From a phage: a DNA stretch of 64,000 bases. The stretch lies in the NCBI GenBank assembly GCA_012690745.1, contig GCA_012690745.1_4086.1; one strand, written 5' to 3'. Under the pieces are notes generated by a model that was given only the letters and a program-made list of their open reading frames with translations, searched no databases and had not been told where the DNA came from. Shown here in pieces: positions 8,901-47,495 of this stretch (positions are counted from its first letter, which is position 1; each line of letters begins with the position of its first letter). Made by a program: the position numbers and the translations under genes.

Positions 8901-11900
8901 GAACCAAAGTCTGCCCCAAATTTAGCGTTTGCAGCACTTGGGGTACAAGAAATAAATTCACCAGTTACTAGAGAATTCTGACTCCAGATCACGAAATCTT
9001 TAGCAATAGTGTTCCAATCTTGTTGAGCACCACTATCATTTACATCTTCAAAAATCCAACCATGTTCTTTAAGATATTCACCATATCCACAAATAAAAGT
9101 ATAAACTTCTTGGTAACTATTGAAAACTTTACCATATTCAATTGAAGCTTCAGACTTCCATTCATTATAATGAACAACATTACGGTTTTCCAATTTAAGA
9201 GTTACTTTTCTACCATTTTTTACTGGAAGTTTATATTTAAATTTAGCACCAACTAGATCATATCCATCAATCTGATATGCACTACCATTCCAAGTAATTT
9301 TGATCGCACTCATTTGCTCATCACGGATATTATTAGAACGAACAAGACCAATGGTTTGGTTTTCTTGTGAAATAAGACCGAAAGATTTAGCATTGAATGT
9401 TAGCTGATCTGCTTTAGTAAATCCTCCAATTTTATGACCAACATTTATATAAGAAGAACGAACTACATCCCCATACTTGGTGGTAATATTTTTATTTTGA
9501 TACATCAAATGGTCACTTACAAACATTTGATAACCAATTGTTCTTGTGCTATTTTCACCATGAACTACTGTATTTTTATCAAAATTAATACGCTTACGTG
9601 TATCACCATAAAGGAATTGTGAACCATCAGTGAATACTTCTTTTAAGTTATCGTTGCGGGTATCCCAGAAATAGTTAGCAAATTGTGCTGGTTTAGCTTT
9701 ATACAAAAGCATCATTTGGTCATATGCAAACAATGTAGTGTTCATGTATGTAAATTCCATGTCACCCATATCACCATATGTCCAAGGTTCTGCTCTATGA
9801 TTTAAAGATCCAGACACTAAACCTAAAATTTCAGGTGCAATATATTCAACCACACAAATATCAATACCAGAAGATGTTTTATTTCCAGTTTTTGTAATTT
9901 TGAATGGCTGTACACCAAATCTTTTATATTTGTCATATTGACCACGACGATCACCAAATAAAATAGTTCCAGTACTGCTATCTCCAATAGTTCCGTCAAT
10001 ATCCCAAAGACCACTAGGAACTAAATCACCTTGCTCATTCATAACAAGTGCTTCATATACATATACAACATCACTATCACGTTCACCAACTTGAACAGCC
10101 GTTGGTTCGTATTCTTGGTTCCACCAAGTTGGACGTTGTGTAAAGCCAAACATTTCCCACGGATGGGTAGCTGGGCGATATGTACCATATTGGTCAGTGT
10201 AAATGGCACGCCATGAACCACGTGCAGGAATTTCAGTACTTTGACCATTAACTACATAATAAGTGCCAGTATAGTTCCAAGTTCTCCAATTGTTAGGATC
10301 ATAATCATGTGTACTATTACTGATACCATTAGTTGCGGTGAAGTTAATGTATCCACGTAGTAATAATGTTTGTTTCTCTTCAGCACTATATTCAGTTTTA
10401 GTGAAATATGGTGTAGGGAAAAGGTCATCACTATTCAATACTGGTACGTAATCAACATCTTTGAATTTATTATCAATACTATTAAAAATTCTATTTTCTA
10501 ATTCATATACAACATCATCCATTTTATCAACACCATTGATAACACGGTATGCTTTGGAAATAATACCAGTATGACTGATGTTATAACAGCTTGGTTTACT
10601 ACCAGCAGTGAGGAATGTCGCTTTTTCTGGTACATATGCTTGAAGAATACCTAAGAACTGTGGTGTTGGTGGTATAAATGCACGAATGAATCCAGAAGTA
10701 CTTCCAACATTATCATAATAGAATGGGAATGAACTATCACGTCCCATATTAATAGTAGTTAAAATTGCATCAACAATGTTTGCAGCACTATTTTGTAAAA
10801 AGTCTGATGGATTTTCATCATACATACGAAGCATTTGTGTATTAAATTTATTAATGAATCTAAAATATTCAGATTGCATAAACATAGTTGCTTCAAACAA
10901 ATCAATATCTTCATTTGCAGTATGTGCCATCAATGGAAGCATAGATGCTTCATTTTGGATAATTTTAGTACCTACGCCATTATTAACCAATCCTTTAGCC
11001 AAACGTTCTTCATAGTCATTGAAATCATCAGAAGAACCACGTGTAATGTTCTTTTGAATAATATCCTGAAAATGTAAAGTGTAGTCACCTTGGTTAATGT
11101 ATATAATATTAGAATTATATGGGTTATTTTGTAGGTTGATTGGAACTTCATATGCACCTAATTCTTTATTAGGAGTTACAGTACTGCTATAAGTTCTAAT
11201 TTGAATAACAGAATCTTCATCCAATTCTACAGTACTATCTAGAGTGATGCTTTGTACTTGACCTTTTGAAACATTTTTGGTATATTTGGACACATCAACA
11301 CCATCAACCACAACTTCAATAATATCAGAATCATTATCTAAAACTTTTTGTGCCAATTCGAATGTATGGTCATATTTTACAATCTGAACACCATCACCAG
11401 TAATTGGATGCCAATCTAGATAAGTTTCACGGTCAGCTTTATAGTACTGATATGTTCTATCAACTTCAATAACATATGCATACATACCATCAACTGGTTC
11501 TTTAAAAACTTCCATATCATAAACAGTACTGAATACACGATACATATCAGTACGTTGGACTTGTGGAGTTTGTTTTACAAATTGTTTAGAGTACTCTTCT
11601 GAACGAACCCAATCGGTTTGAAGATTCATTTCATTATTTTCATCAATAATGTTATAATAGTATAAACCATCAATTTCAACTTCTTTTCCAAGATGGTCAT
11701 AGGTATAACGTTGGGATTGTAAAAAGTTTTCATAAATGTAATAATTATAATCACCAAGTTCAATGTTATATCCATATACACTATCAGTTGCATAGTTGTA
11801 ATTTATTTTAAAACCAAACAACTCTGAACCTTTAAAGTTACTTGATGGATATGTAGTACTGTTGTCAAGTTTGATACCATTACGATCATAAAGTTGGAAT

Positions 11901-27662: not shown

Positions 27663-27672
27663 TTAAAGTTAA

Positions 27673-27697
27673 AGGGAGCCTTAGCTCCCTTTTTTTA
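27673..27697 (+). terminator. Rho-independent terminator after gp46 (overlaps the stop of the convergent minus-strand gene)
   Basis: Stem AGGGAGC / GCTCCCT with a 4-nt loop followed by TTTTTTT. Confidence 0.65.
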
Positions 27698-28172
27698 TAT
27701 CTACCATATTTAATTTACCGTCCTTAATTAGCTTTCTAGCTTGTTTAGTTCTTTCCTTGACGTTACCTCCAGGAACTACTCCTAAATCGCTTAGAATGGC
27801 GTTCTGCTGCGTTGCTGGAAGCCTTTTAAACTTAGCTACGTCAACGGTTAATGCCGTGTGGTGAATGACCTGCTCATCTTCTGGTATATGATTGTTCCTT
27901 TCAAGATAATCTGCCAGATTACGCAATACTTCATGTAATGGCTTATCAGTTAAATGACTTAGGCATCGTTTATATGAGTTTGCTACTCTCCCTTCCCATC
28001 CATTCACTTCGTTTTGAAGAACCTGCCTACAATGTTGATTTCCACCATGATAATGGTCCAGTACTGGTTTTGTTATTTCTATACCAATTATAGGGTCAAT
28101 CCCATTCTGCTTCTTTAATAGTTCATTTCGATAAGATGCTGCTTCTTTAGGATTTTTTAATCTCTTTTTCAT
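27681..28172 (-). CDS. Endonuclease VII-like / HNH-type nuclease (163 aa)
   Basis: LDHYHGGNQHCRQVLQNEVNGWEG resembles the T4 endonuclease VII HNH-like motif (LDHDHE...G.VRGLLC..CN...G as recalled). Confidence 0.4.
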   Translation of the reverse strand: MKKRLKNPKEAASYRNELLKKQNGIDPIIGIEITKPVLDHYHGGNQHCRQVLQNEVNGWEGRVANSYKRCLSHLTDKPLHEVLRNLADYLERNNHIPEDEQVIHHTALTVDVAKFKRLPATQQNAILSDLGVVPGGNVKERTKQARKLIKDGKLNMVDIKKGS

Positions 28173-28232
28173 AGCTGTTTGTCCTGTTTTGTTAAATAAA
28201 GTATATTAAAAAGTTTTGTGAGGTACAATAGA

Positions 28233-29180
28233 ATGGCTAAAATGACACAACAACAATTTATAGATAAATCAATTAATCTACATGGTAGTATTTACACCTA
28301 CAATAACACCGTGTATGTTAATGCACATCAACCAGTGTCTATTACATGTAAAATTCATGGTGACTTTACGGTAGTTCCTAATAAACATATTTCCGCAAAG
28401 CAAGGTTGTCCGGTTTGTTCTGATATTGCAAAGAAAGAACGTAAATCTAAAAAGTCACTGGAGTCATTCTTTACTGAAGCAAAAGAAGTACACGGTGATA
28501 AGTATGATTACTCTAAAGTGTTTTTCAACATTCGTTCAGAGAAAATTACTATCATATGCAAAGAAGAAGGTCATGGTGAATTTAATCAGGTAGTTAGTAA
28601 TCACCTAGCTGGACAGGGTTGCCCTGAATGCTCCAAAGCACTTATTGGTTTAAAGAAAAGAACACCAGAAGATGTATTCTTTGAAGATTGTAAGTACATT
28701 CATATGGATGCATACGACTACTCCAATACAAAATATAATGGTATGTATGAAACAATTACACCAGTATGCAAACGTCATGGAGAATTCACAGTACTGGCAA
28801 CTAAACATTATCATAGAAAGCAAGGTTGTCCGGTTTGTTCTGACATGGAACTAAAGTCAAGACCAGTTATTGAAATTCAGAATTTTTTAAAAGAGTATGA
28901 TATAATATTTGAAATGGAAAAGAAGTTTGATGGTTGTAAAAATATAAACCATTTACCATTTGATTTTTATATTCCTTCACTGAATCTTCTAATAGAGTAT
29001 GATGGTATTCAACACTTCAAACCAATAGAGTACTTTGGTGGTAAACAAGCTTTAGCTGAACAGCAAAGAAATGATGAAATAAAAAATCAATTCTGTTTTA
29101 ATAACAACATTACTCTTCTTAGAATAAAGTATTTCGAAGATCATATTAAAATCATCAAAGACTATATATCAAAACTTTAA
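28233..29180 (+). CDS. Homing-endonuclease-like protein: three tandem zinc-ribbon repeats plus a C-terminal PD-(D/E)xK (Vsr/DUF559-like) nuclease domain
   Basis: Three copies of the repeat (Y-x-Y ... HGEF/HGDF ... GQGCP-x-C). C-terminal FDFYIPSLNLLIEYDGIQHF is typical of Vsr-like PD-(D/E)xK domains. The track ORF starts at GTG 28218; the ATG at 28233 has an RBS. Confidence 0.55.
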   Translation: MAKMTQQQFIDKSINLHGSIYTYNNTVYVNAHQPVSITCKIHGDFTVVPNKHISAKQGCPVCSDIAKKERKSKKSLESFFTEAKEVHGDKYDYSKVFFNIRSEKITIICKEEGHGEFNQVVSNHLAGQGCPECSKALIGLKKRTPEDVFFEDCKYIHMDAYDYSNTKYNGMYETITPVCKRHGEFTVLATKHYHRKQGCPVCSDMELKSRPVIEIQNFLKEYDIIFEMEKKFDGCKNINHLPFDFYIPSLNLLIEYDGIQHFKPIEYFGGKQALAEQQRNDEIKNQFCFNNNITLLRIKYFEDHIKIIKDYISKL

Positions 29181-29203
29181 AATATGATATAGTTTTTTTA
29201 GAA

Positions 29204-29235
29204 CCAAGTAATAAAAATGTTACTTGGGTTTTTAT
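29204..29235 (+). terminator. Rho-independent terminator after the homing-endonuclease-like gene
   Basis: Eight-bp stem CCAAGTAA / TTACTTGG with an 8-nt loop followed by GTTTTTAT. Confidence 0.55.
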
Positions 29236-29305
29236 ATGTGTAAAAGTTGGAACTAAGTACTTAATGAATATTTTTATAAAAATAGTGAGACAACTTTAAA
29301 GTTTG

Positions 29306-29314
29306 TGCTATAAT
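29306..29314 (+). promoter_or_regulatory. Extended -10 sigma70-like promoter (TGcTATAAT) driving an ORF-free region
   Basis: TGcTATAAT with no protein-coding gene downstream before the terminator at 29752-29777. Confidence 0.4.
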
Positions 29315-29319
29315 GTTTG

Positions 29320-29777
29320 TTGTAGTAATGACAATCCTGTTGAATGCAGAAATGCATATAAATTAGAACCTGATCCTATCGAAAATGTAGATGGCAGATG
29401 AGCAGTTCAACAGTGCGATGAGCAAAAGAAACCCGTTAGATGTGGGCATAGTTTGAACCCCTCACGGCAATGCGGCTCAATAAAGAACTCCGATAAGCAT
29501 ACAGAGAGTTCCTAGATAGACATATAAGGATCGCACCTTACCAGATTTGCTAAGGGAGTTTATTAAGTGATTTTAATAAACAGCCTGAAGTTTGATTGTA
29601 TAGACTTTCAGGTGAGTGTCAGGATGATTAAGACTGACGACCGTTGCACATGACTGCGATAGAGAGAAACAGAGCAACCCGCTTTCGTTCTTAATATATT
29701 TTTAAGAAATTCGCAATACAATAAATGCTGAAACCATCAGCGTCAAGAAATAGAGACTTCATTGTCTCTTTTTTATT
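29320..29777 (+). ncRNA. Candidate structured non-coding RNA (~460 nt), unclassified
   Basis: ORF-free, visibly more GC-rich than flanking DNA, bounded by a promoter-like element and a strong intrinsic terminator. Several internal stem-loops (for example CCTGAAG...CTTTCAGG, GTCAG...CTGAC). No tRNA T-loop motif found. Confidence 0.35.
29752..29777 (+). terminator. Rho-independent terminator ending the ORF-free transcription unit
   Basis: Stem AGAGAC / GTCTCT with loop TTCATT followed by TTTTTTATT. Confidence 0.65.
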
Positions 29778-29993
29778 GTCTTCATTCCCCTGCGGGGGGA
29801 TGAAAATGTCCTCAACAAATCCCGTCAAGTATTAAATCTTTTAAAGTTCTTTATAATTAATTTAATTAAATGAATATGAGTTACGTAGTAACGAATATTC
29901 TTCAGCTAACGAATGAAATGAGTTAGATGAATCCAATAATATTAAAATTAATCCTTTCATAATTCAATTCAAATAATTCTGTAGTTTAAAACC

Positions 29994-30021
29994 AAAAAAA
30001 AAACCAGCAACAATGTGCTGG
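29994..30021 (-). terminator. Rho-independent terminator (minus strand) after the 69-aa gene
   Basis: Stem CCAGCA / TGCTGG preceded on the plus strand by A10, which is a U10 tract after the hairpin on the minus strand. Confidence 0.65.
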
Positions 30022-30032
30022 CTATATGAAAA

Positions 30033-30242
30033 TTAGTGCTTCTCGTTTTGTTTTTTAATTTTTTTATTAAAAGACTTAACTAATAAGTCTCTATCTATTA
30101 ATGGCATATTAAGGAGTGTTCCATAGTCAATGTTATCCATATATACAGAACATTCCATTAGTGCATTTTTGATTTCTGACTTATTCAGTTCTATCTCCTT
30201 CAGTACTTCTTGTATTTCTTCAGGAGATGACTGGAGAAGCAT
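30033..30242 (-). CDS. Hypothetical small protein (69 aa)
   Basis: Start overlaps the stop of the upstream 278-aa gene (translational coupling); followed by a terminator. Confidence 0.45.
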   Translation of the reverse strand: MLLQSSPEEIQEVLKEIELNKSEIKNALMECSVYMDNIDYGTLLNMPLIDRDLLVKSFNKKIKKQNEKH

Positions 30243-47093: not shown

Positions 47094-47393
47094 ATGATGA
47101 GTAATATATATAAGCGTATTGGTGAAGTATTAGAAGGTAATGGTATCATTAATTCTGTACTAGCATATGATAATGATGAAGAAGTAGTTCTAATTGGTGC
47201 GGGTTTTACTCGCACTGGTTCAGTGGAAGTTGACGGAGAGATTGCTGATGTTTACACTCTTGTGAAAAAGCGTAAAGTTGTTTTTGTCGATGATGTACAT
47301 ACATTAAAAGACTTGAAAAAATTACGCGATAAAATTGGCATGAGTTCTACAATTGATAAGCCTTATCTTCAACGTTGGAATACAAAATACTGA
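47094..47393 (+). CDS. Hypothetical protein (99 aa)
   Basis: ORF in the replication module. Confidence 0.35.
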   Translation: MMSNIYKRIGEVLEGNGIINSVLAYDNDEEVVLIGAGFTRTGSVEVDGEIADVYTLVKKRKVVFVDDVHTLKDLKKLRDKIGMSSTIDKPYLQRWNTKY

Positions 47394-47400
47394 TAAAAAA

Positions 47401-47430
47401 TTGAGACAAGCATCATTTTTGAGATATAAT
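47401..47430 (+). promoter_or_regulatory. Sigma70-like promoter (TTGAGA - 18 bp - TATAAT)
   Basis: Both hexamers present upstream of the clamp gene. Confidence 0.4.
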
Positions 47431-47495
47431 GGTGCTTGTAGTAATCTTACATAAAAAAACATTTTTGATTAACAAATAAAACGGAGAATTATATA

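Follow-up and report, generated by a model that had tools for sequence, protein, structure and literature searches.

What can be encoded in a stretch of phage DNA that starts with a promoter, ends with a terminator and holds no plausible open reading frame (ORF)? This question is raised by positions 29285-29829 (+) of the contig GCA_012690745.1_4086.1, a 64,000-nucleotide (nt) stretch of phage DNA that is called the window in the following. An initial annotation of the window had taken the locus as a candidate structured non-coding RNA (ncRNA) that is not a transfer RNA (tRNA), a transfer-messenger RNA (tmRNA) or a group I intron and that may be a new phage RNA, a proposal that is supported by the model scans and the covariation presented below. 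We regard it as almost certain that the locus is a self-contained structured ncRNA gene and that it belongs to an undescribed family. The best overall explanation, which we hold to be very probable, is that of an ncRNA gene having its own promoter and a pseudoknotted fold, present as several paralogs and exchanged with bacterial integrative islands, the product of which would act in trans.

The predicted transcription unit

The unit in the window is composed of the following parts.

29285-29314 (+): promoter, with the -35-like GTGAGACA, TG at 29306-29307 and TATAAT at 29309-29314
29321-29365 (+): variable 5' leader, with the hairpin UGCA-GAAA-UGCA at 29344-29355, from the alignments and the fold
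29366-29562 (+): domain 1, from alignment A2 of 33 sequences
29563-29581 (+): variable linker, into which many copies have a hairpin module inserted (loop UACAAnAnAG), the window copy lacking this module
29582-29722 (+): domain 2, a double-pseudoknot core, from alignment A1 of 34 sequences
29727-29747 (+): small hairpin GCUGA/UCAGC, the 3' strand of which carries motif R1
29736-29747 (+): motif R1, AUCAGCGUCAAG, just upstream of the terminator
29752-29777 (+): intrinsic terminator, with the stem AGAGAC/GUCUCU and then a U-run
29781-29804 (+): GC hairpin, UUCAUUCCCC-UGCG-GGGGGAUGAA, conserved in sequence
29808-29829 (+): tail CCUCAACAA and motif R2, AUCCCGUCAAG (R2 at 29819-29829), the 3' limit of the family conservation

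The promoter scan returned GTGAGA/GAGACA, a spacer of 16-18 nt and a TATAAT that ends at 29314 and is preceded by TG, that is, an extended -10 promoter of the sigma-70 type, and this confirms the promoter that had been read at TGcTATAAT 29306-29314 in the initial annotation. The -35 consensus of the family is TTGGrAC. The promoter is aligned and kept in the paralogs, in the orthologs and in the E. coli chromosomal copy (there TTGGGAT..TGTGATATAAT), and a motif of the TGnTAnAAT type is found in 49 of the 64 distinct copies. The -35 of the family (TTGGAAC/TGAGAC) resembles that of the 'divergent RpoD-like' promoter class, with -35 TGAAACG, described in the genome paper of phage CBB. The transcript is predicted to start at ~29321 and to end at ~29777, giving a predicted RNA of ~455 nt, or of ~510 nt with readthrough of the terminator. 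The 5' leader is dispensable, with some island copies beginning ~10 nt upstream of domain 1. It is also noted that a 54-nt stretch at 47393-47445 of the window is 76% identical to the promoter region 29276-29329 and may be a second promoter of the same class.

Both terminators that had been claimed were found again by the terminator scan, which gave 7 terminator-like sites as compared with 1.4 expected in shuffles: the upstream one, which has its T-run directly after 29204-29227, and the strong one, which has TTTTTT after 29752-29769. The GC content over 29300-29800 is 0.39-0.415 versus 0.21-0.31 in the flanks, as had been noticed by eye, and the GC hairpin noticed at 29781-29804 is present. 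The + strand folds with an energy that beats the shuffles (z = -3.1, with 0 of 100 shuffles equal), while the - strand folds less well relative to its shuffles (z = -1.9). As to the extent of the unit, the layout from promoter to terminator holds as proposed, but the hairpin and the tail, which had not been included, belong to it because the conservation passes the terminator and reaches ~29829.

Coding potential

Could the locus, alternatively, encode one or more conserved micro-proteins? The short ORFs that lie on the + strand are the following.

29391-29456 (+): ATG ORF of 21 amino acids (aa), between promoter and terminator
between promoter and terminator (+): TTG ORF of 32 aa
29567-29653 (+): GTG ORF of 28 aa, with the Shine-Dalgarno-like (SD-like) AAGGGAG (29552-29558) lying 8 nt upstream
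29725-29835 (+): ATG ORF of 36 aa, spanning the terminator

On the - strand the ORFs of the locus have at most 45 aa. The micro-protein explanation can thus point to short ORFs of 21-45 aa, to an SD-like motif before one of them, and to several GenBank records that call 'hypothetical proteins' at the copies. However, no ORF is shared in position, strand or frame among the copies, the longest ORFs varying in both strand and frame; their median length of 67 aa is like that of shuffled sequence (55 aa); and 399 of the 484 pairwise indels (82%) are not multiples of 3 and so break the frame. The reading of AAGGGAG and the GTG as a ribosome-binding site was rejected, because the ORF is unconserved and the motif is a pseudoknot strand, namely the 3' strand of PK3 in domain 1 (see below), the sequence that follows being unconserved too. 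A micro-protein gene is, therefore, extremely improbable. This agrees with the initial annotation, where no plausible ORF had been seen (the + strand ATG ORF between promoter and terminator has only 21 aa) and where a conserved small coding frame had been named as a finding that would speak against an RNA: no conserved small ORF accounts for the region.

The conserved fold

In three alignments 92 base pairs were tested, and 91-96% of the cells are paired, as compared with 33-66% when the partners are slid; compensatory changes occur in 65 of the 92 pairs. A comparison among relatives had been recommended from the start, and it reveals that the region is kept and that covarying base pairs are abundant. 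The fold is made up of two domains, which together have 14 or more helices and two to four pseudoknots (PK), two of the latter well supported and two weaker. G·U pairs are frequent in the helices. Read on the opposite strand they would turn into A·C mismatches, so that it is the + strand which folds. There are, moreover, many invariant unpaired blocks, including UCGAAAAUGUAGA, GAAACCCGUUAG, CACGGCAAUGCGGC, GACCGUUGC and GAGAGAAAC...AACCCGC.

Domain 2 is built of the following elements.

29582-93/29602-13 (+): helix Pa
29617-21/29635-39 (+): helix Pb
29655-59/29711-15 (+): helix Pc
29662-66/29682-86 (+): helix Pd
29689-91/29705-07 (+): helix Pe
29595-29601 with 29716-29722 (+): PK1, formed by the loop of Pa with the distant strand
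29643-47 with 29674-78 (+): PK2, GUUGC with GCAAC

In this domain RNAalifold gave 26 compensated pairs among 31 nested ones. With the two pseudoknots included, the 42 pairs are paired in 95.7% of the cells versus 37-45% when the 3' partner is slid by 1-3 columns, 36 pairs have changed on both sides, and none of 500 shuffles matches the observed values. All 7 pairs of PK1 covary, with 99.6% paired, as seen in the variants AUUGUAU/AUACAAU, AUCGAAU/AUUCGAU and UUCAUGU/ACAUGAA. PK2 is 100% paired with 3 of its 5 pairs covarying, and it is compensated in the paralog at 90 kb of phage 121Q (GUCAU/AUGAC) and in CBB (GUUAC/GUAAC). The covariance model R1, which describes domain 2, gives the window copy 156 bits.

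The elements of domain 1 are as follows.

29370-80/29390-97 (+): helix H1, with the invariant loop GAAAAUGUA
29402-04/29414-16 (+): helix H2
29419-23/29475-79 (+): helix H3, long-range
29485-90/29506-11 (+): helix H7
29526-29/29536-39 (+): helix H8
29432-39 with 29550-56 (+): PK3, CCC-UUAG with CUAAGGG
29470-72 with 29521-23 (+): PK4, AUG with CAU

Here the 36 pairs in nine helices are paired in 95.1% of the cells versus 33-49% when slid, 24 pairs have changed on both sides, and again 0 of 500 shuffles match the observed score. Two of the three pairs of PK4 covary. PK3 is consistent with the data, though unproven, because its strands are nearly invariant.

Besides the two domains, a hairpin module, with the loop (G)UACAAnAnAG followed by CGUC(U/C)AAAA, occurs in many copies at two sites, the linker between the domains and the inside of hairpin Pe (loci L010 at ~1700-1750, L019 at 2725-2770 (approximately) and 2860-2900, and L172 at 9225-9260 and 9378-9410). 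It looks like a mobile structural insert, and its loop resembles the 3' strand of PK1 (AUACAAU).

Comparison with known RNAs

The large structured RNA classes of bacteria and phages are few: the ribosomal RNAs, RNase P, tmRNA, group I and II introns, OLE, GOLLD, ROOL, HEARO and raiA. Does the RNA belong to any of them? The covariance-model scan that the initial annotation had asked for was made with the 4227 models of Rfam 15, including tmRNA, RNase P, group I and II introns, 6S, ROOL and GOLLD and also OLE, HEARO, raiA and the riboswitches. At the gathering score there are 0 matches in the whole window. At E up to 10 on 29100-30050 there are only short matches to terminator-like small RNAs, far below the gathering score, and a permissive search of 11 homologous loci gave no consistent match overlapping the element. 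ARAGORN found 0 tRNA or tmRNA genes in the window. Full-text searches of the literature gave no description of the RNA, and the CBB and UE-S1 genome papers are silent on the element.

Several candidates were considered one by one and rejected. The RNA shares with tmRNA and RNase P RNA a length of 350-450 nt, several pseudoknots, conserved single-stranded blocks and occasional carriage by phages. However, the Rfam match to tmRNA is 5.5 bits against a gathering score of 47, which is noise, and no tRNA-like domain is seen by ARAGORN. For RNase P RNA there is no Rfam match, and the pairing partners in PK2 and Pd differ from those of the RNase P P4; the block ACAGAGCAACCCGCUU may loosely recall the RNase P ACAGAACCCGGCUUA. 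A group I intron is rejected as no gene is interrupted, the flanks being terminated or convergent genes and the RNA having its own promoter and terminator; RF00028 gives no match even at E up to 10. The order PK2-5', Pc-5', Pd-5', PK2-3', Pd-3', Pe, Pc-3' does not fit the group I core, in comparison with which an extra helix encloses the would-be P3 3' strand and no P4-P6 lies between the would-be P3 and P7. A hammerhead-like reading of CUGAU...CGAAA...GUC was rejected by eye and by Rfam.

The RNA resembles in kind the ornate ROOL and GOLLD RNAs while being a member of neither family. As in the ornate RNAs, it is longer than 400 nt, non-coding and provided with many covarying helices and pseudoknots and many conserved unpaired nucleotides, and it is a free-standing gene carried by phages and mobile elements. 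With ROOL and GOLLD, and also OLE and raiA, it shares the size class (~450-650 nt here), the helices and pseudoknots, the invariant unpaired nucleotides, the own promoter and terminator, carriage by phages, prophages and mobile elements, and a function yet to be assigned. By contrast, ROOL and GOLLD are from Firmicutes and from rumen and lake samples, whereas the present RNA is from Enterobacterales and their jumbo phages, with 4-5 diverged paralogs per genome, a post-terminator tail with the R1/R2 repeat and no tRNA genes beside the copies in the annotated flanks inspected. The Rfam models of these families (OLE and raiA included) match neither the whole window at curated thresholds nor this copy and the 11 loci at permissive E up to 5-10. 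ROOL, GOLLD and OLE form RNA-only homo-oligomers (PMC12286853), and by analogy RNA-only homo-oligomerisation is a possible mode of action for the jumbo-phage RNA as well.

Guide and bridge RNAs (the IS110 bridge RNA and the omega RNA of IscB/TnpB, including HEARO) are also structured ncRNAs, and in the islands described below the present RNA is likewise adjacent to a recombinase. Unlike in those systems, the island integrase swaps between the tyrosine and the large serine type with the RNA unchanged, the phage copies have no recombinase neighbour, HEARO is unmatched and no hypervariable guide-like loop was identified. At the phage sites inspected there is no reverse transcriptase, IS110 recombinase, IscB or TnpB as a neighbour, as would be found with an RNA of the retron, bridge or omega type.

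A precedent for abundant long ncRNAs in such phages is given by PA5oct, of the same broad clade (PMC7318152). RNA sequencing showed there four ORF-less + strand ncRNAs (ncRNA001-004) of 236-619 nt, two of them highly expressed throughout infection (PMC7318152). It is noted that the 3' end of ncRNA004 (locus L174, 1117-1735) has a C-run/G-run hairpin and then CUCC..CCCG (TTTCCTTCCCAAACGGGGAGGAAATCTTCTCCGCCCG). The same ncRNA contains UCGAAAC..UGUGUAGGAU and GAAACAGAG, motifs that recall the jumbo-phage RNA family; this is a weak lead, no homology being detected.

Copies in jumbo phages

Judged by its sequence, the phage of the window is an Asteriusvirus, a 121Q/PBECO4-like jumbo phage of ~350 kb. 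The initial annotation had missed that the element is one member of a multi-copy family. By BLAST, matches were obtained in 71 phage records, at 4-5 places in each genome, the carriers being RaK2/121Q-like jumbo phages. In 121Q there are four paralogs, all on the + strand and ~70-80% identical to one another.

~90.3 kb (+): 121Q paralog that follows a sigma-factor gene
~192.7 kb (+): 121Q paralog upstream of a 203-aa ORF and a DNA methyltransferase
~247.4 kb (+): 121Q paralog
~326.6 kb (+): 121Q paralog that corresponds to the window copy

The covariance-model scan of 121Q, all but its positions 335-348.5 kb, and of the window gave just these four copies with 125-156 bits and nothing else, the window holding a single copy. 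A 366 kb metagenomic phage has copies at ~41, 188, 269 and 332 kb.

The larger family was recovered by pattern scans followed by confirmation with nhmmer. It comprises ~90 members in total and 64 distinct full-length sequences, which go down to ~60% identity with the window copy. All viral members are on ~350 kb jumbo-phage contigs or pieces thereof (IMG/VR). A longer gapped pattern proved fully specific on the JGI metagenomes, with 56 of 56 loci confirmed. A scan of 186,000 bacterial genomes used a 17-mer, a pattern too short, and among the 120 loci listed, made up otherwise of chance matches, nhmmer confirmed one, in a Buttiauxella metagenome-assembled genome (MAG; locus L113). The further members are this one and those of two complete E. 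coli chromosomes. In GenBank the copies are blank, carry spurious 'hypothetical proteins' or are annotated as 'repeat_region' (UE-S1 record). It is also noted that near the copy of Xanthomonas phage XbC2 there is a gene annotated as ADP-ribosylglycohydrolase-like (XbC2_348; locus L009, 2325-3251), and that an island locus (L192, 2364-3998) likewise has near its RNA an ADP-ribosylglycohydrolase-like gene, putative from the N-terminal motif; this may be a coincidence.

The window copy sits between the EndoVII gene (27681-28172) and the baseplate-hub operon. Segment 29254-29830 is 99.8-100% identical in 121Q, PBECO4, phAPEC6 and others, where it is unannotated or given short 'hypothetical protein' calls. 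The initial annotation had placed the locus in an accessory island with two nuclease genes, which is right for one of them only. The homing-endonuclease-like ORF at 28218-29180 (+), of 320 aa, is indeed an insertion that separates EndoVII from the promoter of the RNA and is followed by a terminator of its own (29204-29227); it is the sole insertion here, with its junction at 29254; EndoVII is not cargo but a syntenic core gene. In the product of the inserted ORF, treble-clef zinc-finger motifs are repeated (DUF723, DUF4379), and a nuclease-like domain, DUF2726, lies at the C-terminus. The ORF is absent from 121Q, PBECO4 and most relatives, and a version of it at the same site is found only in the phage records OR844650 and OR845138 (84.7% identity). 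In 121Q the element adjoins instead the start of the - strand EndoVII gene. Downstream of the window copy there are only convergent - strand genes (a 69-aa ORF and the hub operon). The hub operon ends with a strong - strand terminator at 30002-30023, ~175 nt downstream of the tail of the RNA, so that readthrough from the RNA gene would go antisense into an already-terminated region. Farther upstream, a fully bidirectional terminator lies at 27671-27692 between the gp46-like gene and EndoVII.

The ortholog at the EndoVII-hub site is syntenic in Asteriusvirus, in Mimasvirus (CBB, GAP32) and in Eneladusvirus (the BF-like Serratia phages and Yersinia Yen9-04), while for RaK2, XaC1 and XbC2 the best matches are paralogs other than the window copy. 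Because orthologs thus stand at the same site across genera and other paralogs match best elsewhere, we take the paralogs to be ancient and each one to have been retained. The flanking genes differ from paralog to paralog. The divergence among paralogs equals that of orthologs in different genera, which, together with the synteny across genera, implies that they are not recently mobile.

These data also bear on whether the copies are a repeat at the DNA level, serving recombination, packaging or protein binding or being a decayed mobile element, with the structure incidental. Such an explanation would fit a dispersed repeat with defined ends, for which the UE-S1 record has indeed annotated a repeat_region; the near-palindromic GC hairpin and the direct repeats R1 and R2 could be protein-binding sites, and a homing-endonuclease-like gene is inserted beside the element. 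But paralogs that are syntenic, anciently diverged and not recently mobile, with a conserved promoter attached to the copies, are not expected of it. Nor are the pseudoknots that join a loop to a distant strand, the compensatory changes counted above and the strand-specific G·U pairs, the latter two implying selection on a folded single strand of + polarity. We consider this explanation very improbable. Taken together, the covariation, the G·U pairs that suit one strand only and the indels that break the frame effectively exclude both a DNA-level repeat and a micro-protein gene.

Copies in bacterial integrative islands

About 15 loci have no jumbo-phage genes nearby and are bacterial integrative islands of enterobacteria. 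Their gene order is an integrase, the RNA, a CI-like repressor, a Cro-like HTH_35 protein, a 286-aa protein, an LprI-domain protein and a DNA invertase, where the integrase can be either a tyrosine integrase or, in its place, a large serine recombinase. The CI-like repressor (helix-turn-helix and S24 peptidase) is convergent to the RNA at a fixed distance of ~335 nt downstream. In E. coli LR-29-1 (NZ_AP027515.1, ~3,472,900-3,483,600, locus L172) the RNA is in an island of ~10.8 kb between ffs and ybaA, which holds a tyrosine integrase split by IS3, the RNA, PDC-M45, a serine recombinase and a DUF2188 protein, PDC-M45 being a candidate defence system of DuOB, DUF488 and mSLOG-DUF4326. The same RNA is also carried by NZ_CM130020.1, another genome of E. 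coli. In the E. coli chromosome the copy retains the promoter, the terminator and the tail. The island copies form at least three clusters nested among the phage copies, which implies repeated transfer between phage and island. In addition, in the metagenomic island copy L182 (7945-8607, -) the profile matches in two pieces ~58 nt apart, indicating an insertion or disruption within the RNA, and a serine recombinase gene is close to this interrupted copy.

Another explanation is that the element is a replication origin with a structured primer transcript. The host RNA polymerase would make the RNA early; its fold, the G-run/C-run hairpin and the tail would favour a persistent RNA-DNA hybrid, from which the synthesis of the leading strand is primed, the copies would be several origins on the 350 kb genome, and the islands would in this way replicate without a rep gene. 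ColE1 RNA II is ~550 nt long and structured, with a G-run/C-run interaction, and the T4 origins use transcripts of RNA polymerase. The present element has in common with ColE1 RNA II and T4 oriF/oriG a structured transcript of ~500 nt made by the host RNA polymerase, with a 3' G-run/C-run and AT-rich DNA downstream, and in common with oriF/oriG several dispersed copies on a large T4-like genome. In line with this are the 4-5 dispersed copies (~90, 193, 247 and 327 kb in 121Q, and those of the 366 kb metagenomic phage given above), a promoter of the early, host type, a conserved CCCC...GGGGGG element at the 3' end with AT-rich DNA directly downstream (GC 0.23), the RNase H-type enzymes that the phages encode, and islands with no recognisable replication gene. 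However, the invariant unpaired nucleotides and the multiple pseudoknots exceed what an R-loop needs; the element is far more conserved and pseudoknotted than its presumed counterparts, has no sequence similarity to them and no identified equivalent of RNA I; the intrinsic terminator precedes the GC hairpin in most copies; the GC skew keeps its sign at all four 121Q copies, a weak test for T4-like phages, and no other replication signal was found; and neither a conserved antisense regulator nor an initiator site that could be recognised was seen. An origin is, therefore, quite unlikely.

The 3' end

The 3' end calls for separate consideration, since it bears on whether the element acts in cis. 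The terminator hairpin, with 4 of its 5 stem pairs covarying, is present in ~22 of 29 aligned copies and is missing in the 121Q paralogs at 90 kb and 193 kb. The two paralog lineages with no terminator still retain the tail, which, ending in R2, is kept in essentially every copy and would be within the RNA solely upon readthrough of the terminator. The GC hairpin is present in 61 of 64 copies and is 89.6% paired with little covariation; it includes U·G pairs (one position has 20 U·G as compared with 9 C-G), which suit the + strand only. R2 is a direct repeat of R1, with the form A[U/C]C(A)[G/U/C]CGUCA[A/G], and the pair flanks the terminator and the GC hairpin. R1 and R2 change in step with each other: the U/C position is concordant in 64 of 64 sequences and the base after CGUCA in 28 of 29, with RaK2 having CUUCA in both. 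A scan for columns that covary with R1/R2 in the Watson-Crick sense gave no convincing partner. The co-variation in the same sense suggests a common ligand, a processing signal or an alternative pairing.

Based on these features, it could be supposed that the element is a cis-acting attenuator, that is, a giant riboswitch or sensor leader in which a sensed signal sets how far the terminator at 29752-29777 is read through, its targets being co-directional genes in most phage paralogs and, by antisense, the convergent genes in the islands (cI) and in the window (the 69-aa ORF and the hub operon). The layout of promoter, large conserved fold, intrinsic terminator and further conserved sequence is what would be expected in that case, and in 121Q a + strand gene follows within ~50-180 nt for three of the four paralogs. 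The convergence of the island RNA on the CI-like repressor at the fixed distance would fit too, as would the loss of the terminator with retention of the tail in two lineages and the parallel changes of R1 and R2 around the terminator, which are expected if both pair alternately with a common partner. The duplex of the Pa 5' strand with the terminator has a mean energy of -5.56 kcal/mol for cognate versus -4.88 kcal/mol for mismatched pairs (permutation p = 0.06). But as a test of a co-evolving antiterminator pairing this difference is not significant for either strand of Pa (5' strand, p = 0.06; 3' strand, p = 0.22; phylogeny uncorrected), and among the paralogs and contexts there is no conserved same-strand gene, or class of genes, downstream. 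Moreover, the window copy faces convergent genes only, behind their own terminator at 30002-30023; 450-650 nt with several pseudoknots is far above the known size of riboswitches; and 4-5 paralogs with different neighbours are hard to fit to one regulon. We thus consider an attenuator unlikely.

Proposed function

For the RNA gene with a product acting in trans, we propose the following. In the phage, the unmodified host RNA polymerase would use the extended -10 sigma-70 promoter, with transcription occurring early in infection, while the islands would transcribe the RNA constitutively. The RNA would then act through its tertiary structure. That it acts in trans is somewhat probable in our view, supported by the different neighbours of the paralogs and by the window copy facing convergent genes. 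As molecular roles we consider that of a ribozyme, that of a self-assembling ornate RNA of the kind of ROOL and GOLLD, and that of a scaffold or decoy serving some conserved factor of host or phage; any single one of these is at best tentative. The RNA would serve conflict between phage and host or between phages. This is supported by the CI-like repressor and Cro neighbours in the islands, one of which has the candidate defence system PDC-M45. It is possible, though doubtful, that the RNA is an RNA-only machine (a ribozyme or a self-assembling complex) of a hitherto unrecognised class and used as a weapon or shield. The paralogs would then be specialised in the phages and expressed at the onset of infection, while temperate islands would have captured copies and express them next to their immunity switch, perhaps interfering with the phages that depend on the RNA. 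The family has moved repeatedly between jumbo phages and small enterobacterial islands, where it sits like a moron cassette between the integrase and the CI-like repressor.

Some points weigh against this picture. The RNA is known from sequence alone, its transcript being predicted, and its function is read purely from context. The shuffle controls of the pair counts are uncorrected for phylogeny, for which the slid-partner controls do correct. The GC hairpin, the tail and R2 are conserved past an apparently efficient terminator, which a simple RNA from promoter to terminator does not explain. The island copies of the main group are closely related, so that their shared neighbourhood amounts to few independent observations. 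No partner protein co-occurs with the RNA, the island proteins having no homologs beside the phage copies; the one exception is a DUF4326 domain, which is present elsewhere in 121Q. Finally, ncRNA001, 002 and 004 of PA5oct were not detected by nhmmer (--max) or by the domain-2 covariance model, with default filters for ncRNA001/002 and filters off for ncRNA004 (best 3.2 bits).

Implications

The family can be studied easily, as culturable jumbo phages of E. coli, Salmonella, Klebsiella, Erwinia and Yersinia, under development for therapy, carry it, two E. coli isolates have a natural chromosomal copy, and ~90 diverse sequences define the fold. The blanks, the spurious 'hypothetical proteins' and the 'repeat_region' at these loci in GenBank can now be corrected. 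The large RNA classes with known roles include ribozymes and core ribonucleoprotein components, and a new large RNA class is worth knowing for that reason. To our knowledge, there is no precedent for RNA effectors of this size in conflicts of the kind proposed. Strong selection is implied by the retention of 4-5 ancient paralogs in each genome of the clade, and the repeated exchange with islands that bear immunity and defence genes points to a role that the RNA may have in the conflict between phage and host or between phages.

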